From positions 668-64,667 of the forward strand of contig JBIKRQ010000003.1 in NCBI GenBank assembly GCA_044349155.1: 64,000 nucleotides of DNA, read 5' to 3'. Below the pieces are notes generated by a model, which was not told where the DNA came from, did no database searches, and worked only from the letters and a program-made list of their open reading frames with translations. Shown here one piece after another: positions 11,631-53,555 of this stretch; the first letter of the stretch is position 1; the number at the start of each line of letters is the position of its first letter. The stretch comes from Myxococcota bacterium. Lineage in GTDB: Bacteria > Myxococcota > UBA727 > VGSZ01. The position numbers and the translations under genes are program-made.

Positions 11631-11738
11631 GGCAAGTCAACGCGTCGAACGACGTCGGCGCGGCAGGTTGTCCAACGGCGCGCCTTGAGCGCGCGACGCG
11701 TGCCTTCGCTACAGTGGCCGCGGACCCCGGGAGTACGC

Positions 11739-12545
11739 ATGCGTCACGTTGTTCTGCTGGTGATTTCGGGAGCGGCTGCGTGGTCGACGTGGTCCACGCC
11801 GTCGCACGCGTGCGATCCCACCGTCCCGGTGCTCGACACCGCGTTTCCGTTTGAGGGCTACACCGTGCCGCGCAACGCCACGTTGGGGGCGGTCAAAGTC
11901 GACGACACCATCTACGGCGAACTCGTTGGCGACGACGGTGCGACGCGACGCGTGGCCTGGAGCGACGACGACGCGCGCTTCACCCCCGAGCTACCCGACG
12001 GTGTGTTGCCTGCAGGCCGGCAGGTGCTCACGCTGTTGAGCACCGAAGACGACAACGTCAGCCGCGACATCATCTTCGGCGTCGAAGACGCGATCGATAC
12101 CGACGCCGCGGCGGTCGGCGTGTCGATCACGCGGCGCATCGGCGGCGACAGCGCGCTCGGCCAGGAGAATCCATGCGCGAGCACGCCGTGGCCCACCACG
12201 TTTGCCACGATCGCCATCGAGTCGGGCGGCGACGACGCGGCCTTCATCCAGCTGCAGTCGGGGGAGCGCTTGCGCTTGTTTGATGGCGCGCTCGAAATCA
12301 GCGAAACGGATCGCGACCTCAGCGGCCTCGTCGTCGTCGACTTCGCCGGCAACGCCAGCACGCCCGAGGTGGTCGATGCGGGCAGCGGTGATGACGGCGG
12401 TGGCGGCTGCGGTTGTCGCAGCAACAGTGCCGCGTCGACGGCGGGGCTGGCGCTGTTGGCGGGGCTGTTGCGCGGGGCCCGTCGTCGTCGACGAGGCTCA
12501 GTGACCAAGGGGCCAGCTGGTGACGCCGTAGCCGAGCCAATCTGA
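11739..12545 (+). CDS. secreted protein with a MYXO-CTERM-like sorting tail
   Basis: The real gene is the 3' third of the 765-aa ORF. ATG at 11739 gives MRHVVLLVISGAAAWS. The C-terminus GGGGCGCRSNSAASTAGLALLAGLLRGARRRRR resembles the MYXO-CTERM Cys/TM/Arg pattern, followed by 16 extra residues. Confidence 0.65.
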   Translation: MRHVVLLVISGAAAWSTWSTPSHACDPTVPVLDTAFPFEGYTVPRNATLGAVKVDDTIYGELVGDDGATRRVAWSDDDARFTPELPDGVLPAGRQVLTLLSTEDDNVSRDIIFGVEDAIDTDAAAVGVSITRRIGGDSALGQENPCASTPWPTTFATIAIESGGDDAAFIQLQSGERLRLFDGALEISETDRDLSGLVVVDFAGNASTPEVVDAGSGDDGGGGCGCRSNSAASTAGLALLAGLLRGARRRRRGSVTKGPAGDAVAEPI

Positions 12546-34965: not shown

Positions 34966-35417
34966 CCCCACAGACCCTGGCCGCCCAATCCGCTTTGACC
35001 GCCCTGCAGGGCACGCTCGAGTGGTTGGAACAGCGGCTGGGGTTGTTGGCCGAAGCCGCCCTGCGGTTCGACGTCGCCGAAGTCATCGCGCTCACCGCCG
35101 CCATCGACCGCGGCCAGGACGAGCTGCACACCCGCCAGCTCGACTGCGCCAACGCCCTGTCCGCCGCCCAGGCTGTCGACCCCGAAGGCGCTCGCGTCAC
35201 GTTGCGTCCCTTGCGCGTCGACGTCCGCGCCCGCGCCGTGCGCCTGCAGGAAGTGCAGCGCAGCACCCGCCAGATCGTTGAACGGGCCCGCAGCTTCGCC
35301 TCCGCCCATGCCCGTTCCCTGGTGTCTGCACCGTCGCCCACGGTGGGCTACAGCCGTCGTGGGGCGGCCGCCGCTGCTCCGTCGCTGGCGGGCGCCTTGC
35401 ACGACGCGACGGTGTGA
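34962..35417 (+). CDS. flgN: FlgN-like flagellar export chaperone
   Basis: 151-aa helical protein between flgM and flgK. The call is positional with weak motif support only. Confidence 0.5.
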   Translation: MTPQTLAAQSALTALQGTLEWLEQRLGLLAEAALRFDVAEVIALTAAIDRGQDELHTRQLDCANALSAAQAVDPEGARVTLRPLRVDVRARAVRLQEVQRSTRQIVERARSFASAHARSLVSAPSPTVGYSRRGAAAAAPSLAGALHDATV

Positions 35418-35418
35418 C

Positions 35419-36816
35419 ATGAGTGGACTCTTCTCGGTCCTGCACAACGGCGCTCGCGCCCTCACGGCGCAACGCGTGGCCATGTCCACGGCCAGCCACA
35501 ACATCGAGAACGTGAGCACCGAAGGCTACACGCGCCAACGCGTCAGCCTCGAGGCACTCCCCGCCGAGAACAACACACCCGCCGGCATGGTGGGCACCGG
35601 CGTGCGCGTCACCACGGTCACCACGGCCCGCGACCGCTTCCTCGAGGCACGGCTGCCATCGATGCGTGGCGAGTCGGGCAGTGCCACCTCGCGAGCGGGC
35701 GCACTCGAGGCGGTCACCGCGTTTGACGGTGAAAGCGGCGCCAACATCGCCGGCCGCCTCGGCGACTTCTTCGCGGCCTTGCAGCAGTTGCAGACGCGCC
35801 CTGCCGACGTGTCGGTGCGGCAAGCGGCGGTTGGTGCCGCCAGCGACTTCACGCGGGCGGTGGGCCGGGCGTCGGCCGACCTGGCGTCGGCGAAAAACTC
35901 GATCGACGTCGACCTGCGCGCACGCGCCCCCGAGATTCAGCAGCTCGCCAACCGCGTCGCTCAACTCAACGCCGACATTGGCGCCACCGTGGGCTCTGGT
36001 GGCCCCGCCAACGACCTCATCGACCAACGGCAGGTGGCCATCGACGCGCTCGCCGCCGAAGTGGGTGCCACCGTCGTGCCGAGCGACAGCTTCGCCGCCA
36101 CCCTCGTTCTGCCAGGTGGACAAACCATCGTGGCGGGCGATCGCGCAGCAACCATCACCACCGCCTCGGGCCCCGACGGTCGGGTGCTGCTGTCGGTGAG
36201 CGGCACCGACGGCGCGCCGGCCAGGCTGTTTGACCAAACCCAGGTCGGCGGAGCTGTGGGCGGCTTGATCACCGCCCGCGACGAAGACATCGCGAGTGCC
36301 GAAGCCGCCCTCGACACCTTCGCCTTCGACCTCGCCAACGCCTTCAACGCCGCGCACTCCACGGGCATCGCGCTCGATGGCAGCAGCGGCCGCGACTTGT
36401 TCGCGGTGACGGCCACGTCGGCAGGTGCGGCGCGCACGATCGCGGTGTCGTCGACGATCGCGGGGAATCCATCGTTGTTGGGGGCGTCGTCGACGGGGGC
36501 CACTGGCGATGCCGGCGGTGTGCAGTCGTTGTTGCAGGTGCGCGACACAGCGATCGCGGGCACCACCGATCCGTTTTCGGCGTTGGCCGACATGACCTCG
36601 AGCTTCGGTGAGCGCGCCCGCAGTGCCAGCGTCGATCGCACATCGAGCGCGAGCTTGTTGGCCCACGGCGTGAGCCTGCGCGAAGGCGTGTCGGGGGTGT
36701 CGATCGACGAGGAGCTTGTGGAATTGCAGCGCGCCGAGCGGGCGTTTCAGGCGGCCACCAAGGTGATCAGCACCGCCGACCAGATGCTGCAGACCGTGCT
36801 CGACATCAAGAAGTAG
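35419..36816 (+). CDS. flgK: flagellar hook-associated protein 1 FlgK
   Basis: ATG at 35419. MSGLFSVLHNGARALTAQRVAMSTASHNIENVSTEGYTRQ is the FlgK N-terminal signature. The C-terminal IDEELVELQRAERAFQAATKVI is the rod/hook C-terminal motif. Confidence 0.88.
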   Translation: MSGLFSVLHNGARALTAQRVAMSTASHNIENVSTEGYTRQRVSLEALPAENNTPAGMVGTGVRVTTVTTARDRFLEARLPSMRGESGSATSRAGALEAVTAFDGESGANIAGRLGDFFAALQQLQTRPADVSVRQAAVGAASDFTRAVGRASADLASAKNSIDVDLRARAPEIQQLANRVAQLNADIGATVGSGGPANDLIDQRQVAIDALAAEVGATVVPSDSFAATLVLPGGQTIVAGDRAATITTASGPDGRVLLSVSGTDGAPARLFDQTQVGGAVGGLITARDEDIASAEAALDTFAFDLANAFNAAHSTGIALDGSSGRDLFAVTATSAGAARTIAVSSTIAGNPSLLGASSTGATGDAGGVQSLLQVRDTAIAGTTDPFSALADMTSSFGERARSASVDRTSSASLLAHGVSLREGVSGVSIDEELVELQRAERAFQAATKVISTADQMLQTVLDIKK

Positions 36817-36926
36817 CGATGTGGCTTCTTCGGCTCGCGCTGAAGAAGCGCCGAAGAAGTTTTGACTGCTCCTTCGGTTGGCGCCGAAGAAGTCACGACG
36901 AAGAAGCAGTGCAGGCAGGAGTGAGT

Positions 36927-37808
36927 ATGCGCGTGAGCGAACGAGCCATCTACGACGCCGGTCGCGATCGAATGGCCGCGCGCCGTTCCGACCTCGCCAC
37001 GGCCACCGAGCAAGCGTCGTCGGGGCTGCGCGTCACGCGTGCCGCCGACGATCCCCGCGCCGCCGCCCTGATGGTGCGCCACGAAGGCGTGCGCTCGCGC
37101 GCGAACGCGATTGCCGAGACCACGGGCAGCGCCCTCGACGACCTCAACTTCGTCGACGGCGCGCTGGGCGATGCGAGTGCGGTGCTCGAGCAGGCGGTGC
37201 AATTGGCCGTGCAGATGAGCAACGACACCTACAGCGGCAGCGACCGCACAGCAGCGGCCACCACGGCCGACCAGCTGCTTAAGGCGTTTGTCGGTGCGTT
37301 GAACGTGCAGAGCGACGGGCGCTTTTTGCTCGCCGGCACACGCGACAACGCACCACCGTTTTCCGAGGCCGGCGTGTACAGCGGCGACGACGGTGTTCGG
37401 CAGGTGGAACTCGCACCAGGCATCGTCGAGCAGGTCTCGGTCCGTGCCGATACCGGCATCGCAGGCACCGCCGGCGGCACCAACATTCCAGCGGCGTTTG
37501 CGGCGTTGCGAGATGCGTTGGCGGCGAACGACACCACGGCGATCCGCGCCAGCATTCAGGGGCTCAACAGCAGTGTGGTGCAGTTGTCGACGGTGCGAGG
37601 CGATGTGGGCGCGCGCGCGTTGACGGTGCAGACCGCCCGCGCAACGGCCATCGGTGTGCGCGAGCAGAGTGTGTTGGCCAGTGCTCACGAAAGCGAAATC
37701 GACATCACCGACGCCGCCACGTCGTTGGCCCTCGCCGAGCGCGCCTTCGAAGCCGCCACCACCGCAACGTCGCGCAGCTTCAAGCTCACGCTGCTCAACG
37801 AGATGTGA
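36927..37808 (+). CDS. flgL: flagellar hook-associated protein 3 FlgL (flagellin-fold)
   Basis: ATG at 36927 (MRVSERAIYD...SSGLRVTRAADDP). Flagellin-like N- and C-terminal helices. Follows flgK. Confidence 0.8.
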   Translation: MRVSERAIYDAGRDRMAARRSDLATATEQASSGLRVTRAADDPRAAALMVRHEGVRSRANAIAETTGSALDDLNFVDGALGDASAVLEQAVQLAVQMSNDTYSGSDRTAAATTADQLLKAFVGALNVQSDGRFLLAGTRDNAPPFSEAGVYSGDDGVRQVELAPGIVEQVSVRADTGIAGTAGGTNIPAAFAALRDALAANDTTAIRASIQGLNSSVVQLSTVRGDVGARALTVQTARATAIGVREQSVLASAHESEIDITDAATSLALAERAFEAATTATSRSFKLTLLNEM

Positions 37809-37834: not shown

Positions 37835-38749
37835 CTACTCAGGCAAACCCGACACCGGTTGCGCGAGAAACGTTGCGGCACGCCAAAACGGGTCCGCACC
37901 GCTCATGACGACCTCGGCGCTGTCGAGCGTCGGCACCGCGGGCTGCAGCGCCGCCAACGTCGCGAGCACGTCGACGCAGTCGCCCGGTGTGCTGGTCGTG
38001 CAGCCAACGTCAGCAAGGCCGAGCACGTCGTCGGCCGCGGTGCTGATGACCGACACGCGCACGCTGCCGCCCGATGCGGTGAGCACCTTGCCCATCGCGG
38101 TGAACATGGTGTCCTCGTCGGGGGCAGCGCTGCGGATACGCTGCAGTTCGTCGGCGGCGCAGGCGTTGCCGGGCACGAGCGCCACACTTGCCCCCAGCCA
38201 GAACGCCGCCGACACCGAGAACACGAAGCTGTCGTTGGCCGCGGCGCTGTCGACGTCGGGGCCGCGCACAAAGGGGTACATCGTCCACATCGGCGCGAGC
38301 CGGAAGGTCTCGGTGCCAAACGTGACCGCCCCAGCGCGCGCCTCGGCCACGCGGGCCGTGCTCCACGCCTCGGCGGTCTCGAGATCCAGCAGGGTGCGGG
38401 CGTCGATCCCGGTGACGACGAGGCTGCCGTCGTCGAAGACGCGCGCCCCGAACGAACTCGTGCAGCGCGTGCAGGCATTGGCGAAGTCGAGTTGCGCATC
38501 GGGGGCCGCGGCGGCGAACACCACGTCGGGCAGCGCCACGTTGTCGCGCACGCCAGCGCCGAACACCACTGGCACGGCCGCTACCCGGGTCACCTCCACC
38601 ACTGCAGGCGCCTCAGTGCCCGTGCCGCAGTCGGCGACCGCAAAGCCGCTGTCGGAGGTTCCTGCGTCGTCTGTCGCGTCTTGTGGGCCGCTACAGGCCG
38701 TCAGCGGGGCAAGCATGAGCGCGAGGGCAGCGGGTCGAAGCATGGCCAT
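37835..38749 (-). CDS. hypothetical lipoprotein
   Basis: 304 aa. MAMLRPAALALMLAPLTAC lipobox. No recognised domain. Confidence 0.6.
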   Translation of the reverse strand: MAMLRPAALALMLAPLTACSGPQDATDDAGTSDSGFAVADCGTGTEAPAVVEVTRVAAVPVVFGAGVRDNVALPDVVFAAAAPDAQLDFANACTRCTSSFGARVFDDGSLVVTGIDARTLLDLETAEAWSTARVAEARAGAVTFGTETFRLAPMWTMYPFVRGPDVDSAAANDSFVFSVSAAFWLGASVALVPGNACAADELQRIRSAAPDEDTMFTAMGKVLTASGGSVRVSVISTAADDVLGLADVGCTTSTPGDCVDVLATLAALQPAVPTLDSAEVVMSGADPFWRAATFLAQPVSGLPE

Positions 38750-38784
38750 GGTTTCGGCTTCTCCGCGGTGGTCTTCACGCCAGA

Positions 38785-39321
38785 TCAGCTGCTGGCGAGC
38801 ATTCGCTCGAAGATGCCGATGACGCCGGTGTGCTTGCCGATCACCTGCGCCAGCTTGTTACCGACGATGGCGTACTGCTCGAGCGTAAATCCCGTCGTGG
38901 CCGTCGGCGTTGCCGTGAAGTCGAGGGGTCCACGCACGCGCGCGCTGCTCTCGCGCAGGCCCAGGGCATCGATGCTGTCGGCGACGAAGAAGGCGCGGTG
39001 GTCGTTGGCGGCGGTCACGTACAGCACCGAGCCCGTCGCGTTTTTGATGAGCAGCGTGCCCTCGTGGGGCGCGCTCAGGTCGAGGGCACTCTGCGCGGCG
39101 GCGGGCATCGAGGTGCCCAGAAGCGCAAAGGGCGTGAACTCCACCAGCGACCGCTTTTGTCGACGGAGATTGGCTTCGAACGCCTGCAGGTGGGCTGCCA
39201 CAAGGGCCGCTTGTTGCGCCGCAGGCAGGGCAGCGAAATCAAAGACGAAGGCCTCGGCGTCGCCGCACACGTTGAAGATGGCGACCTGGTTTTGAAACGG
39301 CAGAAGCGAAGCGTGCAGCAT
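38785..39321 (-). CDS. hypothetical 178-aa protein downstream of the retron RT
   Basis: Clean ORF with typical codon usage, 194 nt downstream of the RT stop on the same strand. No recognised domain. Confidence 0.55.
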   Translation of the reverse strand: MLHASLLPFQNQVAIFNVCGDAEAFVFDFAALPAAQQAALVAAHLQAFEANLRRQKRSLVEFTPFALLGTSMPAAAQSALDLSAPHEGTLLIKNATGSVLYVTAANDHRAFFVADSIDALGLRESSARVRGPLDFTATPTATTGFTLEQYAIVGNKLAQVIGKHTGVIGIFERMLASS

Positions 39322-39514
39322 GACGGCGTCCTCGAAGAGACGGTCCGTCTACAGCTTCGACGTCGTCATGGGTGTGCGCAAGATCGCAGCAGCGGCACAA
39401 CGGTTGGTCGTGCCGAACGCGCTGTCGTGTTGATTGGCGGGGATGTTCCCCGCCCTCAAAAGCCACCTCGGCGACGAAACCGCAAAGCCGGTTTCCTCTT
39501 CGAGGTTCGTGGCG

Positions 39515-40960
39515 CTACTCGCCGAGGGTGGCCAGTTCAGCGAGGAAGCGTTGCCCCTTCACGGGGTCGCTTTGGTAGATGAACGACGCCAGACCGCGCA
39601 GCTGCGCCAACGACTCGCCCTCTTTGCCGGGCTTGCCACGACGACGGTTGTTGATCGCCGCTCGCAACGTACGAGCCACTTCCCGCGGCGGACGCGTCGC
39701 TGCCGAAGTACTCCCATCGGGGCGCTTGTTGATGACGAGGCCCGTGACGACCTGGCGCGTGCCACCACCCATCACAGTGGTCTTCTTGTCGTTGAGGACG
39801 AAGCCCTCGTTGCCAAGGATGCTCTTCACCCCGTGCAGCAGCACACCAACGGGTGCTTTCGGCCCGCGGAAGCTGAAGGCGAGGTCGTCGGCGTAGCGCG
39901 TGTACGTGAAGCCGTGACGACGTGCCAAACCCGCCATGCGCTTGTCGAGACGCACGCAAATCGCGTTGGTGATCATGGGCGACGCGGGTGAGCCCTGCGG
40001 CAACGCGCGCGGCCCCGTGGCCACAAACAGCGTGTCCATCGTGCCGGGCGTGCGGCTGAATTCGACGACGTCACGGGGGCTCTCGGTGCACAACAGCGCC
40101 ACCACGGTGGCGACCTGCTCGGTGAGGCCAGCGTGACGCAACAAGCCCTTCACGCGCGGAAACGTGATGCTCGGAAAGAAGTCTTTGATGTCGACTTTGA
40201 CGACGACATCAGCCCCCGCGTGCACGAGCGCGTTGGTCTGAATGCTGCGGTTGGGCAAAAAGCCGTGGGCCGCGTTGTGCACCGTCAAACGGTCGAGCAG
40301 GCGATCGAGCACCTCGCGCTGCACCCGCTTGAGCTCGGGCTTGGGCGCTGTGATTTGACGAGGAGAACCATCGCGCTTCGGGATGGTGAACCGCACGTAG
40401 TGCGAGCCGGTGTCGACGTCGGCGTGGTAGGCGAGCCAGCGCAACCGCGACACGCTCACGCCCAACGCCTTGGCCAATTCGACGGGCGAATTCCACGCGG
40501 GCAGACCAAGGTCTTTCGCGCGTTCTTCGCGACGTTCAATATCGAACGCGTCGATGTTGACATGGTCGTTGTAAAACACACCAGAACCCAGATGATTCAG
40601 GTGCGTTGCCGTATAGGCCTGCCACGCCAACTTCTGCAGTTTGCGTGTCTCTGAAGCCTCGGCCTTCTTGCGGTCTTTGTAGGTCTTCTTCTGCGCGTCG
40701 GTCAGCGTGGCCGGGTCGTCGGCGACGTACAGGCCAGCCTTCACCAGCTCGGCCTGGATCCACTTTTTGGTGCCGCCGGCTTCGTCGATCGCGGCCTGGC
40801 GGGCCACGTGAACGGCACGAGCCGCAGCGGCTTTGTCGCGCTCTTGCTGAGCCAACGTCGCGAGCGCTGGGGTCAAGGCCGGCTCGACCGCGATGGTGTC
40901 GGTCGTAGCGGCACGCGCCCGGGGAAGATCGGCGCGAAGGAGGGTGTCGTTGGGCTGCAT
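39515..40960 (-). CDS. retron-type reverse transcriptase with ~190-aa N-terminal extension
   Basis: RFTIPKRDGSPRQITAPK, VKVDIKDFFPSI, LPQGSPASPMITN, YTRYADDLAFSF (YADD) and RQVVTGLVINKR (retron VTG motif). ATG at 40960 is preceded by AGGAG (40969-40973). The track start at 41020 is a GTG inside the a1 repeat. Confidence 0.88.
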   Translation of the reverse strand: MQPNDTLLRADLPRARAATTDTIAVEPALTPALATLAQQERDKAAAARAVHVARQAAIDEAGGTKKWIQAELVKAGLYVADDPATLTDAQKKTYKDRKKAEASETRKLQKLAWQAYTATHLNHLGSGVFYNDHVNIDAFDIERREERAKDLGLPAWNSPVELAKALGVSVSRLRWLAYHADVDTGSHYVRFTIPKRDGSPRQITAPKPELKRVQREVLDRLLDRLTVHNAAHGFLPNRSIQTNALVHAGADVVVKVDIKDFFPSITFPRVKGLLRHAGLTEQVATVVALLCTESPRDVVEFSRTPGTMDTLFVATGPRALPQGSPASPMITNAICVRLDKRMAGLARRHGFTYTRYADDLAFSFRGPKAPVGVLLHGVKSILGNEGFVLNDKKTTVMGGGTRQVVTGLVINKRPDGSTSAATRPPREVARTLRAAINNRRRGKPGKEGESLAQLRGLASFIYQSDPVKGQRFLAELATLGE

Positions 40961-41003
40961 TCGGCGGACTCCTGGACTCTCACTCACCGGGCACAAGGGT
41001 GGC

Positions 41004-41387
41004 GAAAGGAGCAGGCTCACACGGTGCTTCTGATTCGATGACGACGTGGCAGGTCGGTAAGTCTCGGACAGGGATGGCGCAGATCACCATCATTCATGGG
41101 GCATCGGATGCCTCACCGGCTCGCCGGGGGAGAGCACTACGGAGTGCTTCCCTCCACGGCGGTCGGCGTCGTGGGCTCAGCGAGGGAAGCACTCCGTAGT
41201 GCTCTCCCCCGAAGCGAGCCAAGAACAGGCATCCTTGCGGAGGATGTCAGGCGAAGTTCCAGATCGACGCAACATCGATCGTGTGCGCGAGGCACAACGG
41301 CTGAGCCGCAAACCATCCCTGACCGATTCCTACCCAAGCTGTTCGGACGTCATCGGTATTGAAGCGTCGTGTGAGCGTGCTCCTTTC
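41004..41387 (-). ncRNA. candidate retron msr/msd non-coding RNA locus
   Basis: A 19/20-nt inverted repeat (41004-41023 against 41368-41387) brackets the region. Inside is a perfect 29-bp stem (41126-41154 / 41182-41210, 27-nt loop), extended by 41118-41124/41214-41220 and 41106-41112/41228-41234. It lies immediately upstream of the RT on the same strand. Confidence 0.75.
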
Positions 41388-41428
41388 TCATCCATCTGCG
41401 AACCGGCTCCTCACATGAGCATGGTTCG

Positions 41429-43270
41429 TCAACCCAGCGAGCGATCGGCGTCGAGAAAGCCATCTTTCATCAACACGTCCAGCCGCTGGAAATAAGCATC
41501 GCGCGCTTCGGAATCGGTGTCAAACCAGATCCGCGAGTGTCTCGCCTGTTCAAGGGCCAAACCCCACTCCAAACGCACAATTTTGTCGTCGAGTGAGACG
41601 CGCATCACAGTTTGCTTGCCCGTGGCCTGGTCGCGACGCAGCAGCGTGCGCGTTTCGGCGCGAACCAGCTGGCGACCTTCGGGGCTGTTGCGGCGTTCTT
41701 CGTCGAGCACACGCTGACGACCGAAGGCCACACGCAAGGCGATCATGTGCGCGCACGGACCCTCGCGCATGCCGGTACGACGGTAGTGCGGGCAGCTGCA
41801 CCAGGCGTCGGAGACACGGCCCTCGACGTCGGTGGTGAAGCGCGGGGCGTAGACGCGGTCGGCGGTTTTGTCTTTGACCTCGCCCACCACGTCGATGCCG
41901 TCGTGGCCGCGGTCGTGCAGCTTGGTGACGTTGACCGCGCCCTTCACCGACAACAGCCGGTGCGCTTCGCGCTCGCGCTCGCTGCCAAAGGCGGTGACCT
42001 CGTCGTCGACGGCGACGCCGAAGATGCTGCGCGGACGGTACACGCCATCGGCGATGTCGAAGGCCACCTGCCCGCGCAAACACAGGCGCTGCAGGCCACC
42101 GCGCACGTCGACGACGGGCTTCTTTGTCTTTGCCACCAACGCTTCGAGCGTTTGTGGGCCGTCGGTGTTCAGCGTTTTCTCAAGGGCGCTCAACAACGTG
42201 GCGTCGTTGCTGGAAGGCATGAGCGCGTCGAAGGCGACGGCACTGGCCCAGCTCGATTCGGTCCAGCCCGACAAGCCCAACGTGAGCGTGGCGTTCTCCA
42301 TCTCGACGACGAAGAAGCTCGGCAGGCCTGCACCCAACACGTGCACGTGCACCGCCTTCGCCCACGGCAGCAGACGCTGCAGCAGGGCCAAACGGTTGCG
42401 GCCAAACAAGCGCGCCACACGGGGAGCAGCGCCGGCGAACACGGGGCCGTGGGTCTCGAGCACGACTTCCCAGGGCTCGATGACGACGCGGGGTTTCTCG
42501 CCGGGGATGAGCTCGAAGCGCAGGCCGCGCGGCGGGTTCTTCGCCTTCTTCAAGCGCAGCTGCAGCAGCACGTTGTAGAGGTCGATGGGCGCCAGCGTGC
42601 ACACCGTCGACGGCAACGTGGCCGCCGACTGCACCTGCAGGAATCCACGCAGCCACGCGTTGGGCACATCGAAGCGCGCCTCGCGCACCTCGGTGTTTTC
42701 GGCACTGCGGGCCTCGAGGCGCAGCGGGCGGTAGGCGGGGATGCTCTCGACGTCGCCGAGGACGTGCTTGCCCAGCTCGACGAAGGTGCTGCCGTGGTTG
42801 ACGCTGCGCTCGCTCAACGCAGCATTCTTGATGGCCAGGCGGGCCCAGGCGCTCTCGTCTTTCGAGAAGACTTCGATGCTGACCTCGTCGGGGTGCACCG
42901 TGAGCAGCGGGTCGAGTTCGCGGGTGCTGACGGCGGCCTTGAAGCTTTCTTCGAGGAACGTCTTCTGCGCGTCCCAGATCGCGGCGGTCGCCTTCTTGCC
43001 CTTCTTCATCAAGAACGCGAGGTAGGCGGCGCGGTCACGGCCCTTGTAGCGCAGGTCGCTGTCTTTGATGGCCAACGTCGTCGCCAGCGCGTCGCGAAAC
43101 AGCGCGACGTTGTTGATGGCGGCGAAGAGGCCCACCTTGCTGTCGCGCTGAGCAACAGCGAGCCCGAGCGTGGTGCCGGCTTCAGACGAGGCGGTGTGCG
43201 AACGGCGCGCGTAGCGGACGTCGACGGTGCGGACGTTGCTCGTCGTCGTTTGTGCTTGTGTGCTGGTCAT
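41429..43270 (-). CDS. SWIM zinc-finger protein (YehQ-like architecture)
   Basis: 613 aa. C-terminal CSCPHYRRTGMREGPCAHMIAL matches the CxCx(n)CxH SWIM motif. Its start overlaps the stop of the giant upstream gene (ATGA). Confidence 0.8.
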   Translation of the reverse strand: MTSTQAQTTTSNVRTVDVRYARRSHTASSEAGTTLGLAVAQRDSKVGLFAAINNVALFRDALATTLAIKDSDLRYKGRDRAAYLAFLMKKGKKATAAIWDAQKTFLEESFKAAVSTRELDPLLTVHPDEVSIEVFSKDESAWARLAIKNAALSERSVNHGSTFVELGKHVLGDVESIPAYRPLRLEARSAENTEVREARFDVPNAWLRGFLQVQSAATLPSTVCTLAPIDLYNVLLQLRLKKAKNPPRGLRFELIPGEKPRVVIEPWEVVLETHGPVFAGAAPRVARLFGRNRLALLQRLLPWAKAVHVHVLGAGLPSFFVVEMENATLTLGLSGWTESSWASAVAFDALMPSSNDATLLSALEKTLNTDGPQTLEALVAKTKKPVVDVRGGLQRLCLRGQVAFDIADGVYRPRSIFGVAVDDEVTAFGSEREREAHRLLSVKGAVNVTKLHDRGHDGIDVVGEVKDKTADRVYAPRFTTDVEGRVSDAWCSCPHYRRTGMREGPCAHMIALRVAFGRQRVLDEERRNSPEGRQLVRAETRTLLRRDQATGKQTVMRVSLDDKIVRLEWGLALEQARHSRIWFDTDSEARDAYFQRLDVLMKDGFLDADRSLG

Positions 43271-46200
43271 TTCGTCACCTCGACGCCTTTGCTCTGTTCA
43301 CCGACGCGGCCGCTCCACGAGGGCAGCGCTGTGTCGGGGTGCGATCGCCGCTCGTGGGCCGCGTGCAGGCGCTCCTGACGACGAAGCGCGCGGTAGGCGG
43401 CCTTTCTGGCGGCGGCATCGATCGACTTGTCGCGCGCGAGTTCGCTGAGGCGTTCGCGGGCACTGTCGTCGTCGACACGGGCCAGGGCGTTGATCGCCGT
43501 GGCTTTCGTTGCGGCCTGCTTCGTGGCGGCAATCATCGCCTCGGCATCGCCGATGAGCTTTTGCACGCCAAGCACCGCGGTGTTGTCGTCGGCGAGCAAG
43601 GCAGCATCAGCGGGCGCCATCGACGACAACCGCAGCGGATCGAAGGCCACCGCCGCCTTCGCTGTCTGCCATGGTGTCGATGACAACTTCGCCACTGCGC
43701 GGGCCGCCGCAGCACGGCACACGAGGCTGCTGTCGCGCAGACGCGACACCAAACGCGGCAGGTCGGCGGTGCTGCCGCCTGTGCCCAACACTTCGATGAG
43801 CGTGGCGCGCAGCGTGGCGTTGGTGGTGGCATCGAGCCGTGAACGCGCGAGGTCGGCGGCGCGCGCGGTGTCGATGTGCACCAGGGCGGCGACGACGGCG
43901 TTTTGCACGGTCGGCTCGTCGACGAGACGCAGCTCGGCGGCGACCAACGCATCCGCCAACACCACGCGGTCAGCGCCATTCGCCTTGCGTGCCGCGACGA
44001 TGGCGGCAGCCTCGGCCACCGCACTCGCCTTCGTGCTCGAGAGCACAGACACGAGGGCCGAAGCGGGCACCGTGTCGCGCGCAATCAAGCCCAGACGCAG
44101 GCGCGTGCGCAGCTCGCTGTCGTCGATGGTGACAAGGCGCGGCAACAGCGCTTCGACACTGCCTTCGGCGGCGAGGAAGTTGGCGGCTTCGAGCTTTTCG
44201 TCGTCGTCGTCGCTCTTGTCGAGCACGTGCAGCGCAACGCGGGTCTTGTCGTCGGGGAAGAGCTTCTTGAGGGCCTTGGTCGCGGCCCCGCGGATGTCGT
44301 CGTCCCAGTTCGACAGGCACTCAGCGATGGCGGCTTCGGCTTCAACGGCACCGAGGGCGGCGAGGGCTTCGCAGGCCTCGACGATGACGGTGTCGTTGCG
44401 GTCTTCGTGCACACCGCGCACAAGCAACTGCTTGCTGCGTTCATCGCCAATGGCACGCAGACCGCGCACCGCGCGCCAGGCCACCTGGTCGTCGCTGTCG
44501 TCGATGGCGGTTTCCAGGCGCTCAAAGATGCGCGTGCGCGCTGGCGCATCGGTGAGGTGGTTGTGCAAGCGGCCGAGGCCTTCGAGGGCTGCCTGCTGCA
44601 ACGCCTTCTCGGAAGGCACTTCGGCGGTACCGCCGTCGGCGACGAGCTCGAGTTCCGGCAGCGCGCGCGGATCGCCGAGACGACCAAGGGCCACCAGAGC
44701 TGTCGCGCGGTCGGCTTCTTCCTCGGCCGCACGGCTCACGAGCAACAACGGCACGAGGCACAGGTCGGCGACGGCGGGTCCCTTGACCCACGCCAGCCCC
44801 TCGGCTGCCGAGAGCACCAGCTCACGCGAACCGCGGGTGACGACGTCGACGAGGGGGCCTGTGGGGCTGTCGGTCTTGCGGCAGCGTTCGGCGTAGGCAG
44901 CGACCGCAGCCTTGCGCACGTCGACTTCGCGATCGCTGAAGAGTGCAACCACAGCGTCGTCGGCCACGCTGCCCTTGCCCGAAGCCGACAACTCGGCGGC
45001 GGCCTTGGCGCGCAGCTCGGCGTCAGGCGACGCACACACGATCGAGAAGAAGCGGGCGGCTCTGGCGTCGTCGCGCTTCTTCTTTTTGCCGGTCAGCGTT
45101 TTGCCGGTGTCGTACGCCTCGGTGCGCACGCCGGCGTCGGCGTGCTTGGTGAGCTTGCCCAGGGCATCGAGCACGGCATTCACGTCGTCGACGTGGGCGG
45201 GGATTGCCTTGCCGTCTTTGCCCGTGCGGTCGTCGCACACGGTGCTCAAGGCACCACACAATCCCGGCAGGTCGCGGGCGGTGGTGTCGGCGGCGATGTT
45301 CAACAACGCGGCGGCAGCAGCGCGCGTGCCCAGCGTGGCCAGGGCGTTTCTGGCGCGGCCGATCACCTTGTCGTCGTCGCCGACCGTGAGGCCCACCAGC
45401 GCGTCGAGGGCGCGGGCGTCGCTGCGACCAGCGAGAATCTCCGCGGCGCGCAGCACGAGCCCTTTGTGCTCGCTGTCGAGGGCGGCCACGAGGGCGTCAC
45501 CCACCGAGGCGTCGTCGCGCTTCTTGCTGAGCTGCTCGAGCACCGACAACCGCAGGTCGTCGTGTTCGCTCTTGAGCGCCAAAACCAGGTGCGAAATCGA
45601 GCCCTTGGCGGCGCGGCGTTCCAGCGTTTCGAACGCCAGTTTTCTCACTTCCGCAATGGGCGAATTGACCGCGCGTTCGACCTGGGCCGACACACCGCGC
45701 TCGGCGAGCTCGTCCAACGCCAGGCGGGCCACGTCTTCGGCGCGGGCCATCAGGGCCAGGCCGAGGGCGTCGTCGATGCCACCGCTGGTTTTCTCGAACA
45801 GCTTCTTCAAGCCGCCCAGCGATGCCTTGCGCACGAGGTGCTGACCGTCGTCGAGGGCGCGCATCAGGGCCGGGATGGCCGCTTCGCGACCAAGGCCAGC
45901 GCCACCTTCAGCCGCCAGCGTGACGATGCGTTCGACGGCGTCACGGCGCACACGCTGCCCATCGTCGCCGGTGGTCTGCTGGCGCAGCAGGCCGACGTAG
46001 GCGCCGAAGGCCAACTGCTTGAGGCGGGCGGCTTCTTCGGCCGACACCGGCGGTGTCGTCGACGTGGTCGAGGTGGTGGGTTCGCTGGACGACGAGAACA
46101 CGCGACGCAAGAAGCCGCGCACGCGGGCCACGGGAGCGATGTCGTCGACACTGCTGGTGGGACGCGGGCGGTTGTCGGGCGTGTGCGGTGACGACGTGGA

Positions 46201-49200
46201 ACGCAGGCGCACGGCGTCTTCGGCGGCCTTGAAGAAGGCCTTCGCGTCGGCACGGTGCAACAGCGCTGAGGCGGCGGCGTAGCGCTGCTCGGGGCGGTCA
46301 GCACACAGGGCATCGGCCAGCTGCAGCATGAGCCGCGAGCGGTTTGCGTCGTCGCGCATCGCCTCGGGCCAGGCCTTCAATTCTGCTGGTTTTTCGGGCT
46401 TCTCGGGCGACAGCACGCTGACCAGGTGGGCCTGGTAGGCACTGCCTTCGCCCACACCCTGGTGGCGCAATTCGAGCGCACGGGCCGCCGCAAAACGCAC
46501 CTCGGGGCGGGCCGCCGACAACGCCGCCGCGAGCACCGTGGGGGCTTCACCACGACGAGCAAGGCCAAGGTCGTAGGCGAGCACGATGCCGAAGACGAGG
46601 AGTTCGACTTCCAGCGTGTCGTCGTCGAGCCCCTGCAACAGGCCCGCGTGGCCGTCGGCACCAAAGGCCGCGTAGGCGAGCACCGCTCCTCGACGGATGG
46701 GCAGGTTGTCGTGCTTGAGCGTGCCCGCGAGCACGGGCAGGCAGCGCGCATCGCCCAGACGCGCAAGGCCCTCAGCGGCCCACGAGCGCACCCACACATC
46801 GGCGTGGCCGATGGCATCGAGCAGGTACTGCTCGTCGCCACGACGGGTGGCGGTGGCCAAACCACGGGCGGCTTCTTCTCGGATGCCTGGGTGCGCATCT
46901 TTGAGCAGCTCGGTGGCGAAGAAGCGCACAAGACCGGGCTTGCCCAACGTGGCCAGCGAGGCCGCTGCACGTCGACGAAGCGCGTCGGCACCATCGGCAC
47001 CAAACAAGCGCACGAGTTCGTCGCGGTTGTTGATGATGCTCTTCATCGCATCAACGGCGACGTCGTCGTGGCGCAGGGCCAGCAGTTCACCAGCGCGCAC
47101 GCGCACGTCGTAGTGGTTGCTGGCGATGGCGGTGACCATCGGGCCCTGCTCGCTTGGCAACAGCGCATCGAGGGTGTCGACCGCAGCCAAACGCGTGGGC
47201 GCGTGGTCGTCGAGCAACGCCTTGATGAGTGCACTGCGCACGTCGTCGGCACGGCAACGACGCACCTGACGCGCAGCACTCGCGCGCACGCTGCCGTGGA
47301 TCGAGGCGAAGGCCGCCAGATGCGCGGCTGCGTCGTCGACGGCGTTGGCGCGGACACCGTTGTCGTCGAGCGGATTGCGACGCTTCACCAGCGCGTCGTA
47401 AGCGGCGGTGGCGACACTCTCGTCGAGGTCGGCGATGGTCGTGAGCAGCTGCTGCTCGGCCCACGGCACGCTCGCGATGGTGCTGCCCTTCGGCGGGGCG
47501 AGGATGGCGTCGAGTTCGGCGACAGCGACGAGGCGCGTGTCTTTGAAGCGCGCGCTGCGCAAACGAGCCAGCGTTTTGGCCTTGTCGTCGCCGGCCCAAC
47601 CGAGGGCGGTTTTGGTGGCTTCGGCGCGGACCTTGGCGCTCTCGTCGTCGAGGGCCTCGTCGAGCAGGGCGCGGTGGTCCTTCGTGTGCGACGTGCCCGC
47701 GGCCTTCAGCAGCGTTTGCAACGCACGCACGCGGATGTCTTCGGCGGCGCTGCGCAGGCCCACGTCGGCGACGACGAACGGGTCGTTCTCGCCGGCGGCG
47801 AAGGTGTCAAACGCCGCGCCGCGCACGTTGGCGCTCTTGTCGTTGAGCAACCACACCAGACGCGTGCGGGCGTCGTCGTTCTTCCACGCACCAAGCAACG
47901 CAGCGGCGGCGCGGCGGAAGTTCTCGTCGTCGTGACGCGAGAGCTGCAGCGTTGCACCCAATGCACGCGTGTCGCCGAAGGCCGACAACGCCCACGCACC
48001 ACGCATCGCGGTGTCGGGCAGGCGCGAAGCGAGGGCGAGCAGCATGGGGCGATTGTCGTCGTCACCTCGCTCGGCACCGCCGTCTTTCGGCAGCGAGGCG
48101 AGGGCGGCGGTCGCCACGGTGTCTTCGATCATCTTGTCGAAGGTTTCCGCCTGCACCTGGGCCACGCGGCGGCCGATGTCGAGGAGCTTGCGGGCAAACG
48201 TGGGGTCGTCTTGCAGGCGTGCCAGCGGCTTGCGCAGGGCCACGGCCAACGCGAAGGCGCGGTCGCGGGTGGCGAAGTCGTCGTCGTCAAACGCGCGGGC
48301 GAACAGGTCGGCCAACGCCGGATCGCGGTGCAGGCCAAGGATGGCCGTCCGCACCAACGCATCGAAGCGCACCGTGGCGTTGCCGCGGATGATCGCCATG
48401 CGCAGCGCGTTCTGACGGTCAGCACTGACCTCGAGCAACGCGCCCAAAGCCGTGGCGGCCACGACGGGATCGCTGTCGACGAGGCGCTTGCCGATCAAAC
48501 CTGCAGCGACACTCGCATCGGTACCGGTCTTGAACGTCGCCAGCTTCTTCAACGACGCGATTCGACGATCGGCTGCCGTGCTGCTCAACCCCGCGCGCGG
48601 GGCCGCAAACACGTCGCCAGGCTCAAGCGCCGCGAGGGCGTCGTAGGCGGCAAGACGCACCGTCGCGTCTTTGTCGCTCAGCGACGTCTTCAGTGCAGCA
48701 CGTGCCAGACGGGCGGGGGCCGACGTGGGCACGCGCTGGCCGAGGCCTTTGGCCACCAACACGCGCACTTCGGCGTCTTTGTCGTTCGCCAACGTTTCGA
48801 GCAGCAGCGAAATCGCTGCGTCGTCGTCGAGACCGGCCAACCACGCCACGGCTTCTTCACGACGAGCGCGGGCACCCGAGAGTGCGTCCTTCGCTTTGTC
48901 GTAGCCATTGAGCAGCGGCTCGCCCGACGCCCAGTCGTTGGGCCCTGTCATCGTGCGGCGGTGCACCTTGCCCGCCACGTTGCTCAAAAACAGCGTGCCA
49001 GCGCCGGTGAGCTTGTCGCCCTTTTCCACCTTCGGCACGACGCACAGGGCAGTCAGCTGACCACCGAGCTCGTCGACAGTGCGGGGCTTCTTCTTGTCTT
49101 CGAGGCGCCAGCCCTTGAGGCTGCCGTCGACACCAATCGAGTAGAGGCGGTCTTCGGTGGTGCCATCAACCGCGGCAGCCCCCGACGACACAAACACCAG

Positions 49201-49860
49201 ACCACGCACGCCGCCGTCGTGGCCGCTCTTGTCGGCTCCGCGCACTTCGGCGTCGGCCGCACCCGTGAGGTACCACAGGCGCAGGGTGCCATCGTCGCCA
49301 CCCGAGGCCACGCGGCCATCGCGCACAAACGCCAACGCGCTCACGCCACCGTCGTGGCCCACCATTTTGCGGGCCGCATCGTCGAGACGCGCGCGCAAAA
49401 ACGTGGTGACCACACCGTCGTCACCACCGACCGCGATGTGCGTGTCGTTGATGGCCACAGCGCGCAAACGACGCTCGGTCACGCGCGTCCGATGGACCTC
49501 AGCAAACCCCGCGGCTTCGACGACGACGACGTGGCCGTCGGCGAGCGCGCACACCACGTGCTTGCCAGCAGCAGCGAGTGCCGTGACCGCCGAGCCGAGG
49601 TTCGGGCCAACGGTGACCGCCCCTTCATCGGTGACGAGGCGCAACAGGCCATCGTCAGCACCGACGACGAAGCCGCCGTCGACGGCGACAACGCTACGGC
49701 CCGCACACGGCAACGCCGCGGTGGCCTTCGGCTTGTTGCCGACGTGATCGAAAATGGTGACGGCACTGTCGCCGCGCGCGCGCTCACCGACGACGGCGAT
49801 GAGGCGAGCGGTGGCAGCAAGAGCGCGGGGTGTTTCTGCGTGGCCAAGAAAGACAGGCAT
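43267..49860 (-). CDS. 2197-aa protein: N-terminal WD40-like beta-propeller followed by ~1850 aa of HEAT/PBS-lyase-type repeats
   Basis: N-terminus has GHDGGVSALAF..DGRVASGGDDGTLRLW type blades. After that come dozens of D..VR..AA.AL repeats. A single uninterrupted ORF with typical codon bias. Confidence 0.8.
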   Translation of the reverse strand: MPVFLGHAETPRALAATARLIAVVGERARGDSAVTIFDHVGNKPKATAALPCAGRSVVAVDGGFVVGADDGLLRLVTDEGAVTVGPNLGSAVTALAAAGKHVVCALADGHVVVVEAAGFAEVHRTRVTERRLRAVAINDTHIAVGGDDGVVTTFLRARLDDAARKMVGHDGGVSALAFVRDGRVASGGDDGTLRLWYLTGAADAEVRGADKSGHDGGVRGLVFVSSGAAAVDGTTEDRLYSIGVDGSLKGWRLEDKKKPRTVDELGGQLTALCVVPKVEKGDKLTGAGTLFLSNVAGKVHRRTMTGPNDWASGEPLLNGYDKAKDALSGARARREEAVAWLAGLDDDAAISLLLETLANDKDAEVRVLVAKGLGQRVPTSAPARLARAALKTSLSDKDATVRLAAYDALAALEPGDVFAAPRAGLSSTAADRRIASLKKLATFKTGTDASVAAGLIGKRLVDSDPVVAATALGALLEVSADRQNALRMAIIRGNATVRFDALVRTAILGLHRDPALADLFARAFDDDDFATRDRAFALAVALRKPLARLQDDPTFARKLLDIGRRVAQVQAETFDKMIEDTVATAALASLPKDGGAERGDDDNRPMLLALASRLPDTAMRGAWALSAFGDTRALGATLQLSRHDDENFRRAAAALLGAWKNDDARTRLVWLLNDKSANVRGAAFDTFAAGENDPFVVADVGLRSAAEDIRVRALQTLLKAAGTSHTKDHRALLDEALDDESAKVRAEATKTALGWAGDDKAKTLARLRSARFKDTRLVAVAELDAILAPPKGSTIASVPWAEQQLLTTIADLDESVATAAYDALVKRRNPLDDNGVRANAVDDAAAHLAAFASIHGSVRASAARQVRRCRADDVRSALIKALLDDHAPTRLAAVDTLDALLPSEQGPMVTAIASNHYDVRVRAGELLALRHDDVAVDAMKSIINNRDELVRLFGADGADALRRRAAASLATLGKPGLVRFFATELLKDAHPGIREEAARGLATATRRGDEQYLLDAIGHADVWVRSWAAEGLARLGDARCLPVLAGTLKHDNLPIRRGAVLAYAAFGADGHAGLLQGLDDDTLEVELLVFGIVLAYDLGLARRGEAPTVLAAALSAARPEVRFAAARALELRHQGVGEGSAYQAHLVSVLSPEKPEKPAELKAWPEAMRDDANRSRLMLQLADALCADRPEQRYAAASALLHRADAKAFFKAAEDAVRLRSTSSPHTPDNRPRPTSSVDDIAPVARVRGFLRRVFSSSSEPTTSTTSTTPPVSAEEAARLKQLAFGAYVGLLRQQTTGDDGQRVRRDAVERIVTLAAEGGAGLGREAAIPALMRALDDGQHLVRKASLGGLKKLFEKTSGGIDDALGLALMARAEDVARLALDELAERGVSAQVERAVNSPIAEVRKLAFETLERRAAKGSISHLVLALKSEHDDLRLSVLEQLSKKRDDASVGDALVAALDSEHKGLVLRAAEILAGRSDARALDALVGLTVGDDDKVIGRARNALATLGTRAAAAALLNIAADTTARDLPGLCGALSTVCDDRTGKDGKAIPAHVDDVNAVLDALGKLTKHADAGVRTEAYDTGKTLTGKKKKRDDARAARFFSIVCASPDAELRAKAAAELSASGKGSVADDAVVALFSDREVDVRKAAVAAYAERCRKTDSPTGPLVDVVTRGSRELVLSAAEGLAWVKGPAVADLCLVPLLLVSRAAEEEADRATALVALGRLGDPRALPELELVADGGTAEVPSEKALQQAALEGLGRLHNHLTDAPARTRIFERLETAIDDSDDQVAWRAVRGLRAIGDERSKQLLVRGVHEDRNDTVIVEACEALAALGAVEAEAAIAECLSNWDDDIRGAATKALKKLFPDDKTRVALHVLDKSDDDDEKLEAANFLAAEGSVEALLPRLVTIDDSELRTRLRLGLIARDTVPASALVSVLSSTKASAVAEAAAIVAARKANGADRVVLADALVAAELRLVDEPTVQNAVVAALVHIDTARAADLARSRLDATTNATLRATLIEVLGTGGSTADLPRLVSRLRDSSLVCRAAAARAVAKLSSTPWQTAKAAVAFDPLRLSSMAPADAALLADDNTAVLGVQKLIGDAEAMIAATKQAATKATAINALARVDDDSARERLSELARDKSIDAAARKAAYRALRRQERLHAAHERRSHPDTALPSWSGRVGEQSKGVEVTK

Positions 49861-49863
49861 CGG

Positions 49864-52611: not shown

Positions 52612-52667
52612 ACGGCGACAACAAACGGGGACGTCGACGACACGGTCGACGAAGAGATCGGGTCAGG

Positions 52668-53555
52668 TCAGCTCAACGCACTCTTGCGGCGGTCGCACAC
52701 GACGTCGCCAGCGGGGAGGGCAGCCACGAAAGCAGCGCGGTCGGTGCGTGACTCGATGTGCCCGCGCAACGCCTGCAACCTCTGCGCGGCGATGGCGTCG
52801 GGGAGGTCTTTGTCGACGAGGGCGCGGCCCACGCGAAACGCGAGTTCCTGATCGGGCAGTGCAGCCGCGGTGGCGGCCAACACCTGCAACGCCGACGACG
52901 CCGCACCCGACGGCTTCTGCCAGCGCGCCAACACCGAGGTGAACGCCGACGTGCGCAACGACGACAACACCTGCAGCACCAACGGCAGCGGCAACGACGG
53001 CGCGCTGAGCACGGCATCCGCCGCAGCCAACACGGCGGTGTTCAAGTCGGCGTGGGCAAAAAGGTCGACACCGGCGATGCGCGAGACCGCGCGGGTGGCT
53101 TCTTTGGCGGCCTGACGACGACGCCACGAGCGGCCTGCCGTGCTCTTGACCAGCGCGCGCACAGCGGTGGTGGCGGCTTTGACGAGGGCGGCATCGGTGA
53201 TGTCGGCGTCGACGACGCGCACGGGCAACGGGGTGACGGGCTTCGCGGCCGGCTTCGCAGGCTCTTTGGCGGCGGCCTTCTTCGCGGGCTTTTTGGCGAC
53301 CGCTTCGTCGTCACCGTCGTCGTCGTTGTCGCTTACGGCTGCCGCACCGTCGGTGACCTCGACGTAGCCCTCGCGGAGCTTCTCGGCGACCTTCTTGTCG
53401 TACTCTTTTTGCGCGGCTTCTTCGGAGTCGAACTCTTTTTCTTTGCGCTGCCCGTCGGTGCCGATGCGGCCGTACACGACGGTGAAGACCGAGCCATCGA
53501 GCCGGGGCATCCAGAATTTGCTGCTGCCACCACCGACAAATTCGAAGCGACGCAT
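52668..53555 (-). CDS. WGR-domain protein
   Basis: MRRFEFVGGGSSKFWMPRLDGSVFTVVYGRIGTDGQRKEKEF...KLREGYVEV is a canonical WGR domain. Followed by a Lys/Ala/Pro linker and a helical C-terminal region. Confidence 0.85.
   Translation of the reverse strand: MRRFEFVGGGSSKFWMPRLDGSVFTVVYGRIGTDGQRKEKEFDSEEAAQKEYDKKVAEKLREGYVEVTDGAAAVSDNDDDGDDEAVAKKPAKKAAAKEPAKPAAKPVTPLPVRVVDADITDAALVKAATTAVRALVKSTAGRSWRRRQAAKEATRAVSRIAGVDLFAHADLNTAVLAAADAVLSAPSLPLPLVLQVLSSLRTSAFTSVLARWQKPSGAASSALQVLAATAAALPDQELAFRVGRALVDKDLPDAIAAQRLQALRGHIESRTDRAAFVAALPAGDVVCDRRKSALS

Follow-up and report, generated by a model that had tools for sequence, protein, structure and literature searches.

A six-part type XIII retron locus of the Mx162/Sa163 lineage on a Myxococcota contig, with a long a1/a2 duplex and a compensated hypervariable patch in the msd stem

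The myxobacterial retrons Mx162 and Sa163, named for their multicopy single-stranded DNA (msDNA), have been known for decades. Their reverse transcriptases (RTs) fall into clade 10, or type XIII, which also includes those of Mx65 and Ne144 and has an extended N-terminus (Mestre 2020, PMC7736814; Simon 2019, PMC6868368). Pairs of RT and noncoding RNA (ncRNA) from this clade are among the best producers of RT-DNA in E. coli (Khan 2024, PMC10849725). Here, we analyzed a 64,000-nucleotide (nt) window of the Myxococcota contig JBIKRQ010000003.1, to which all coordinates without a locus handle refer, and found a retron on its minus strand. The six-part locus at 39515-53555 fitted type XIII in every respect that could be tested, with an ncRNA of the Mx162/Sa163 lineage, and is not a new retron type. 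We read it, with a probability of roughly 85%, as an intact chromosomal type XIII retron of this lineage in an uncultured Myxococcota-like host. Its parts are as follows.

52668-53555, minus strand: WGR-domain protein of 295 amino acids (aa), first gene of the operon (Pfam WGR, E = 7.6e-18; weak match to PADLOC WGR_XIII).
49864-52611, minus strand: HEAT/ARM-repeat protein of 915 aa (PADLOC HEAT-ARM_XIII PDLC02921, E = 2.4e-190).
43267-49860, minus strand: WD40 beta-propeller and HEAT protein of 2197 aa (PADLOC HEAT-ARM_XIII PDLC02919, E = 1.1e-300).
41429-43270, minus strand: SWIM zinc-finger protein of 613 aa (PADLOC SWIM_XIII, E = 3.8e-142; Pfam SWIM).
41004-41387, minus strand: retron ncRNA of 384 nt, comprising msr-msd and a1/a2 (inverted repeats, fold, profile, covariation).
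39515-40960, minus strand: retron RT of 481 aa with an N-terminal extension of about 170-190 aa (PADLOC RT_XIII).

All six parts belong to the type XIII families and are intact, and the five open reading frames (ORFs) are full length compared with their homologues. The operon is 14 kb long, and the four genes upstream of the ncRNA follow each other closely, with gaps of 56 nt and 3 nt and one overlap of 4 nt; the overlap lies between the stop of the 2197-aa gene and the start of the SWIM gene. The gene order, from WGR through HEAT/ARM, the WD40-HEAT giant, SWIM and ncRNA to RT, was kept in loci of Sorangium, Polyangia and Nannocystaceae and in the closest metagenomic relatives, with synteny over about 50 loci; in Competibacter, the HEAT genes are found on the downstream side of the RT instead. 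The GC content across the locus was unremarkable. Two ORFs 3' of the RT, at 38785-39321 and 37835-38749, were considered as members of the system and rejected, as neither had a family match or a homologue near any related RT. Because of this, and because homology to locus L081, a 95%-identical relative, ends exactly at the RT stop codon, we delimited the system to 39515-53555. The initial annotation had described a complete retron from the RT and its upstream RNA; both were found to be intact and the retron identity holds, but four accessory genes, reaching about 12 kb further upstream, had been overlooked.

The top PADLOC model for the RT was RT_XIII (E = 8.2e-142, 471 bits, residues 74-499 of a 501-aa form described below), and the next-best PADLOC retron model reached 295 bits. 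In NCBIfam, retron models scored 208-216 bits, so that the top matches in both collections were all retrons, and the group II intron RT scored 55 bits (cutoff 300), Drt2 34 bits (cutoff 390) and Drt3a 28 bits (cutoff 200). On these scores, an RT of the group II intron, diversity-generating retroelement (DGR) or abortive infection/defence-associated RT (Abi/DRT) class was rejected. The nearest solved structures were likewise retron RTs, namely Ec86 (E = 1.7e-41) and Ec67 (4e-33), whereas group II intron RT structures matched only at about 1e-6 to 1e-7. In the 481-aa numbering, the motif NALVH (NAxxH) was found at 243, YADD at 356 and RQVVTGLVINKR with VTG at 405. The match to Pfam RVT_1 begins at residue 213 in the ORF searched, and the domain lies about 190-210 residues into the protein. 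The earlier description of a retron-specific YADD/VTG enzyme with an extension of about 190 aa, reminiscent of Mx162 and Mx65, was thus borne out by the motifs, the start of RVT_1 and the top model; the outcome that it named as refuting, an RT that groups with group II intron, DGR or Abi-type enzymes, was tested for, the group II and DRT scores lay far under their cutoffs, and the retron reading stands.

The RT was about 53-58% identical to those of cultured myxobacteria, 70-72% to those of the nearest metagenome-assembled genomes (MAGs) among the species genomes, and 97% to a metagenome relative from the Joint Genome Institute (JGI). All close relatives of the retron were Myxococcota MAGs. 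Plasmid and phage collections held no close RT relatives (best identities 42% and 35%), and this search therefore gave no evidence that this clade rides on such elements. The RT genes of the window and L081 differed at 106 of 1446 nt. Of these changes, 88 affect third codon positions, and the proteins differ in 14 of 481 residues, a pattern of substitution that indicates purifying selection.

We also examined the RT start, as a longer ORF of 501 aa (39515-41020, minus strand) begins at GTG 41020. Sequence comparison placed the start at ATG 40960, since the closest homologues are 481-488 aa long and align from residue 1, since the sequence 5' of ATGCAGCCCA, which is conserved among relatives, contains indels that would break the reading frame, their lengths not being divisible by three, and since locus L001 has an in-frame TGA directly before the homologous ATG. 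The ATG follows this element:

40969-40973, minus strand: Shine-Dalgarno sequence AGGAG, with an 8-nt spacer to ATG 40960.

The sequence CAGGAGTCC around it was kept in L081, L082 and L085. These observations agree with the ATG and good AGGAG proposed initially. The suspicion that GTG 41020 is a wrong start within an a1 repeat was right as to the start, which is spurious; the arm, however, is a2, because in retron nomenclature a1 sits at the 5' end of the RNA and the RT-proximal arm is a2.

The ncRNA upstream of the RT was resolved into the following elements.

41302-41387, minus strand: a1 arm, 86 nt, the 5' arm, pairing with 41004-41088.
41301, minus strand: predicted priming (branching) G of CAGC, directly 3' of the a1 arm.
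41244-41301, minus strand: msr, made up of the priming G and the 57 nt after it; it forms two short hairpins, whose pairs covary (alignment columns 11-23 and 25-45).
41089-41251, minus strand: msd template; its long stem covaries, and the msDNA end is placed by the Mx162 length rule.
41125-41154 and 41182-41211, minus strand: upper msd stem, a perfect 30 bp with 100% complementary arms and a 27-nt loop at 41155-41181.
About 41188-41203 and 41133-41148, minus strand: hypervariable patch in the middle of the stem, always compensated.
41004-41088, minus strand: a2 arm, 85 nt, the 3' arm, holding the spurious GTG 41020.

Inverted repeats of 40 nt (41348-41387 and 41004-41043, 80% complementary) flank the ncRNA on both sides, and a second long-range pairing was found between 41056-41077 and 41313-41334. 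The fold energy of the 384-nt RNA was -230 kcal/mol, and none of 100 dinucleotide shuffles was as stable (z = -15.4). Given the inverted repeats, the perfect hairpin and this fold, the structured region is real and far beyond chance. RT-upstream regions of relatives were taken from 185k species genomes, and clear a1/a2 repeats with a conserved core were present upstream of the RTs in Archangium, Hyalangium, Citreicoccus, Sorangium and Polyangia. We built a core profile from ncRNAs adjoining type XIII RTs, in place of Mestre's covariance model; nhmmer with this profile gave one match in the window (41304-41083, minus strand, E = 1.7e-48). An Rfam scan of 38500-43500 (E <= 10) returned no retron or intron family, only sub-threshold miRNA-like matches on the long hairpin. 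RNAalifold on 33 aligned sequences predicted a consensus with 75 pairs, 45 of which show compensatory double changes, and the covarying pairs cover the two msr hairpins and the long msd hairpin. The initial annotation had pointed to a 384-nt region with the hallmarks of msr/msd, 44 nt upstream of the ATG. The region is indeed an ncRNA of the Mx162/Sa163 type, but about 170 nt of it form the a1/a2 duplex around a core of Mx162 size.

The Mx162 msdRNA is 77 nt long and branched at G20, with an 8-nt overlap. Using this rule, and with the msr length beyond the G (57 nt) identical to that of Mx162-like relatives, we predicted an msDNA that would correspond to the plus strand of the window from 41089 to 41251, i.e., 163 nt, or 166 nt if synthesis starts at 41086 (a 3-nt register shift). 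The same rule gave 163-164 nt in five loci of the Archangium/Hyalangium type, matching the known 162/163-nt products, and this agreement, together with the msr length, is the basis of the predicted span. The tetranucleotide CAGC was invariant across the 33 aligned ncRNAs. As CAGC is also the context of the priming G in Mx162 and Sa163 (Simon 2019, PMC6868368), we assigned the branching G to 41301. We consider it likely that msDNA is synthesized with the ends given here.

The pairing of a1 with a2 reaches inward beyond the 40-nt repeat, to 41302 and 41088. The resulting duplex has about 86 nt per arm in the sub-clade of the window, compared with about 35-40 nt in the Archangium group of Mx162-like relatives. 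All 10 ncRNA copies of the sub-clade folded with the long duplex, with 5' arms of 82-128 nt in complete copies, and in 8 of the 10 the duplex abuts the priming G; the predicted pairing ends 9-11 nt before it in L002c and in L088b, a copy at a contig end. In an alignment of eight members, 90.4% of cells were paired, against 37-45% with a slid partner, and 19 of 64 pairs were compensatory; none of 500 shuffles reached these values. Covariation in the alignment thus supports the long duplex. The outermost conserved part reads GAAAGGAGC, which is Shine-Dalgarno-like, in a1 (41375-41384), and the outermost a2 segment (41004-41015, 44 nt before the RT start) reads GCUCCUUUC; this outer sequence was kept in L081, L082, L086, L088 and L002. 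The a2 segment GCUCCUUUC resembles the 3' end of 16S rRNA. In engineered retrons, a longer a1/a2 reportedly raises the yield of RT-DNA.

In contrast to the 27-nt loop and the lower msd stem, which were nearly frozen among relatives, the mid-stem patch differed in every relative and in every copy, yet stayed perfectly or near-perfectly paired. In particular, the whole ncRNA differed from that of L081 at 8 positions, four of them in the a2 arm, and between a1 and a2 the only differences were at 41195 and 41193, compensated at 41141 and 41143, although the RT genes differ at 7.3%. Several related type XIII loci have between two and four complete msr-msd units for one RT, placed on its 5' side, its 3' side or both, as listed here; we came across no published description of patch diversity between copies.

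L002, at 9685-9906, 11552-11773 and 11938-12159: three ncRNA copies, all with separate a1/a2 arms and with mid-stem patches that differ from one another.
L088, at 9609-9830 and 11508-11730: two ncRNA copies.
L009, L030, L036 (four copies) and L038: further multi-copy loci.

In the window, nhmmer --max to E = 100 found no second ncRNA copy. For the segment 39250-39514, blastn-short against the downstream copies of relatives gave only matches of 10-13 nt (E = 0.009-0.6), which we judged not significant. In L001, a 72%-identical relative on a 1.9-kb MAG contig, the upper msd stem arms at L001:1-160 were not complementary, and the fold was -76 kcal/mol against -107 kcal/mol for the window equivalent; the probable cause is a chimeric assembly that joins strains differing in their stem patches, or else the copy is broken.

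We also observed a mosaic of divergence between 39515-41987 of the window and L081:1-2471. The 3' end of the SWIM gene (559 nt) had 2 differences and the ncRNA 8, compared with 106 in the 1446 nt of the RT, mostly synonymous. The pattern points to a recent recombination event, with its breakpoint close to where a2 and the RT gene meet, or else to a metagenome contig that is chimeric. Where the nearest relatives had downstream sequence, their flanking DNA differed from that of the window.

The SWIM protein, which contains CSCPHYRRTGMREGPCAH, carries the finger CxCx12CxH (CSC-x12-CAH) at residues 491-508. Such proteins have been proposed to be nucleases derived from a DEDE transposase, with a winged helix, and the central motif of the type XIII family was given as Dx7[D]x4Ex30-32Dx37E (Mestre 2020, PMC7736814). 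In our motif search, D120-x7-D128-x4-E133 was present and conserved, whereas neither strict nor relaxed patterns recovered the remaining half. A strict match to the full DEDE motif at residue 422 overlaps the SWIM finger and was rejected as probably accidental; the relaxed pattern gave none. Neither the protein nor its 42-sequence profile had a sequence-level match in the PDB. We predicted its structure with AlphaFold2 from the 42-sequence alignment (predicted local distance difference test 84, predicted template modelling (TM) score 0.83). Foldseek of this model against the PDB and viral models returned almost exclusively PCNA, beta-clamp and 9-1-1 structures (top matches E ~6e-7; 343 PDB matches below 1e-3), with a TM score (target) of 0.6-0.7 and a root mean square deviation of 6-8 Å over about 320 aligned columns at an identity of about 10%. 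In the model, residues ~1-335 look like two PCNA-like clamp-fold domains. After them come a helical stretch similar to a winged helix, the SWIM finger and, at the C-terminus, a domain of beta-sheet plus helix that resembles WGR; a JGI homologue of the protein is named for WGR. The fold prediction does not support the DEDE-nuclease view, and our literature search found no clamp-fold link for type XIII.

The database entry for this protein (P0122) is 526 aa long, with 100% identity at 86% coverage. Its start was probably annotated too far downstream, and ATG 43270 fits better, since homologues are 600-649 aa long and align from residues 1-9 and since this ATG gives the 4-nt overlap with the upstream stop.

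Upstream of the SWIM gene, the 2197-aa protein matched Pfam HEAT_2 (E = 3e-55) and WD40/beta-propeller models at residues ~70-280. The 915-aa HEAT protein had no Pfam or PDB sequence match; its gene also precedes the large HEAT gene in the loci of Sorangium, Polyangia and Nannocystaceae. The PADLOC model WGR_XIII describes one fused WGR and HEAT/ARM protein of about 970 positions, and the 915-aa protein also matched part of it. Locus L089 has a 295-aa WGR gene at the same position. The window and L089, in which the WGR and HEAT/ARM ORFs are separate and lie 56 nt apart, represent a split-gene variant by this comparison.

From these parts we propose the following course of events, which up to the msDNA is the canonical retron pathway and is supported by the sequence evidence. 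The two ends of the ncRNA, a1 of about 86 nt and a2, would pair as a long imperfect duplex and bring G41301 beside the first template base. The RT would read the msr hairpins, prime from the 2'-OH of G41301 and copy the msd from 41089 to about 41251 into a DNA of about 163-166 nt, 2'-5'-branched to the msr and base-paired with it at its 3' end, while host RNase H would strip the copied template. The product would be a long DNA hairpin with the conserved 27-nt loop, the perfect 30-bp upper stem and the lineage-specific mid-stem patch. By analogy with characterized retrons, the particle of msDNA and RT may then be bound by the accessory proteins, namely SWIM, WGR and both scaffolds of repeat proteins, an association to which we give even odds. 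Such an assembly could act as a sensor, and its disturbance by a phage would set off a host response; we put an anti-phage role slightly below an even chance. The best reading of the locus is a putative nucleic-acid-sensing assembly built around the msDNA hairpin, serving, by analogy, most likely in defence.

Several points weigh against this reading. No enzymatic toxin domain was found in any of the five proteins, and PADLOC recognized no defence gene among the four neighbouring ORFs upstream and the two downstream. A sigma-70 promoter scan gave nothing above shuffle expectation, although such a scan is uninformative at 65-69% GC. Our literature search found no experimental test of anti-phage activity, or of any other function, of type XIII. 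The msDNA of this locus is a prediction from sequence, and its predicted ends derive from homology and the Mx162 numbers. Finally, type XIII RTs track the 16S of their hosts, a sign of vertical inheritance and perhaps of a role other than defence (Mestre 2020, PMC7736814).

Because type XIII tracks host phylogeny, the alternative of a domesticated element has to be considered, i.e., an active type XIII retron that serves as a housekeeping element in DNA metabolism or regulation and is inherited vertically in Myxococcota. The trees of the type XIII RT and its accessory proteins correlate with host 16S at 0.78, which was taken to suggest domestication (Mestre 2020, PMC7736814). The missing toxin domain and neighbouring defence genes are also in its favour, as are the lack of close relatives on plasmids or phages and the combination of a predicted SWIM clamp fold, WGR and winged-helix modules, which is typical of replication and repair factors. 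However, every functionally characterized retron type is anti-phage, and the compensated hypervariable patch and the multi-copy ncRNAs with different patches look like the diversifying selection that is typical of conflict systems. The differing flanks of the nearest relatives, with L081 homology ending at the RT stop, also argue against strict vertical stability. We consider domestication somewhat unlikely on this balance.

That the locus is a decaying relic in which msDNA is no longer made is very improbable. It would accord with the single ncRNA copy in the window, compared with two or three in some of its nearest relatives, and with the lack of a detected promoter; but none of the five ORFs is shortened, purifying selection acts on the RT, the priming CAGC is preserved together with every helix, and the ncRNA is identical to that of L081 except for four a2 changes and the compensated patch, though the RT differs at 7%. 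An RT of another class (group II, DGR or Abi/DRT) next to hairpins that are unrelated repeats can be dismissed, as the generic RVT_1 domain is all that would suit it, whereas RT_XIII outscores the group II, Drt2 and Drt3a models, all of them under their cutoffs, Rfam found no group II intron RNA in 38500-43500, and the RNA upstream shows both covariation and homology to the ncRNAs of retrons.

Within the preferred reading of a sensing assembly, we also considered how type XIII might work as a system without a conventional toxin. The SWIM protein, as a PCNA-like clamp with added winged-helix, SWIM and WGR-like modules, might bind or encircle the double-stranded msDNA stem, and the patch might be a specificity determinant that is read by an assembly of clamp, WGR and HEAT proteins or is hit by phage factors. 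Tandem copies, as in L002, would then let one RT and effector set show several sensor DNAs, and the a1/a2 duplex of about 86 bp could be a processing or stability module. This scheme is speculative, and we regard it as improbable.

Outside the six parts, the scan for intrinsic terminators also gave nothing above shuffle expectation. The one hit of the promoter and terminator scans that falls within the ncRNA corresponds to a conserved hairpin, CATCC..GGATG, where msr and msd meet. We observed two GC-rich hairpins 3' of the RT stop (39436-39494, minus strand), neither with a U-tract.

39477-39494, minus strand: hairpin AAACCG-GCTTTG-CGGTTT.
39436-39454, minus strand: hairpin GGCGGGG-AACAT-CCCCGCC.

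These hairpins, for which Rfam gave sub-threshold matches only, may be operon terminators in a high-GC genome. About 1.7 kb downstream of the retron, at 35278-37808 on the plus strand, we found flgK (FlgK_D1, E = 1.5e-48) and a gene of the flgL/flagellin family. Myxococcota have classically been viewed as a non-flagellated phylum. Since these genes lie near a retron whose relatives are all Myxococcota MAGs, the host lineage may represent uncultured myxobacteria that have flagella.

Among retrons, the locus is ordinary. Type XIII made up about 11% of the retron candidates in a recent metagenome survey, and the value of the locus lies in being a clean and complete example of a type for which the literature and PDB searched contained neither a functional test nor a solved structure. 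The long duplex, the compensated patch and the clamp-like fold are leads that concern the sub-clade or the whole type and not the window alone. All three could be tested: an a1/a2 duplex whose length is over twice that of the Mx162-like relatives compared, a hypervariable patch that is compensated in an otherwise frozen msDNA, and a predicted clamp-like SWIM fold in place of a transposase-like nuclease. The last of these would, if true, change the understanding of the type XIII effector module.

To place the locus among known systems, we compared it with the nearest retrons. In Retron-Eco1 (Ec86, type II-A), the retron that is characterized best and has solved structures, a1/a2 has 12 nt and the msDNA 86 nt. 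The logic of a1/a2, priming G, msr hairpins and msd hairpin is the same as in the window, and its RT is the nearest solved one; the Ec86 chains of 320-349 aa align from about residue 147 of the window RT, without the N-terminal extension, and the Ec86 effector, an N-glycosidase, has no counterpart in the window. The 2-4 tandem ncRNA copies of the relatives echo Retron-Nex1 (Ne160, Nannocystis exedens), in which msr-msd repeats are duplicated (Simon 2019, PMC6868368), whereas the window holds a single copy. Compared with type XIII as described by Mestre 2020 (clade 10; clusters 114_1 for SWIM and 216/259/1688 for HEAT-ARM/WGR), every component class and the gene order agree, and the window corresponds to the two-HEAT-gene variant described there (PMC7736814). 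In contrast to that description, the SWIM fold is predicted to be PCNA-like, with only the first half of the DEDE motif recognizable, and in contrast to the fused WGR_XIII model of PADLOC, the WGR domain of the window is a separate 295-aa ORF.

The most similar systems were Mx162 (Retron-Mxa1, Myxococcus xanthus) and Sa163 (Retron-Sau1, Stigmatella aurantiaca), with which the window was compared through the Archangium, Hyalangium and Citreicoccus relatives (RT identity ~53-58%). Differences were present in the a1/a2 arms, which are about 86 nt in the window and about 35-40 nt in the Mx162-like relatives, and in the upper msd stem, whose sequence is unrelated. The overall architecture was otherwise shared, including the RT clade and long N-terminal extension, the ncRNA core with its CAGC context, the 57-nt msr after the G, the predicted msDNA of about 163 nt with its long hairpin, the distance of about 43 nt from a2 to the RT start, and the SWIM and HEAT/ARM neighbours.

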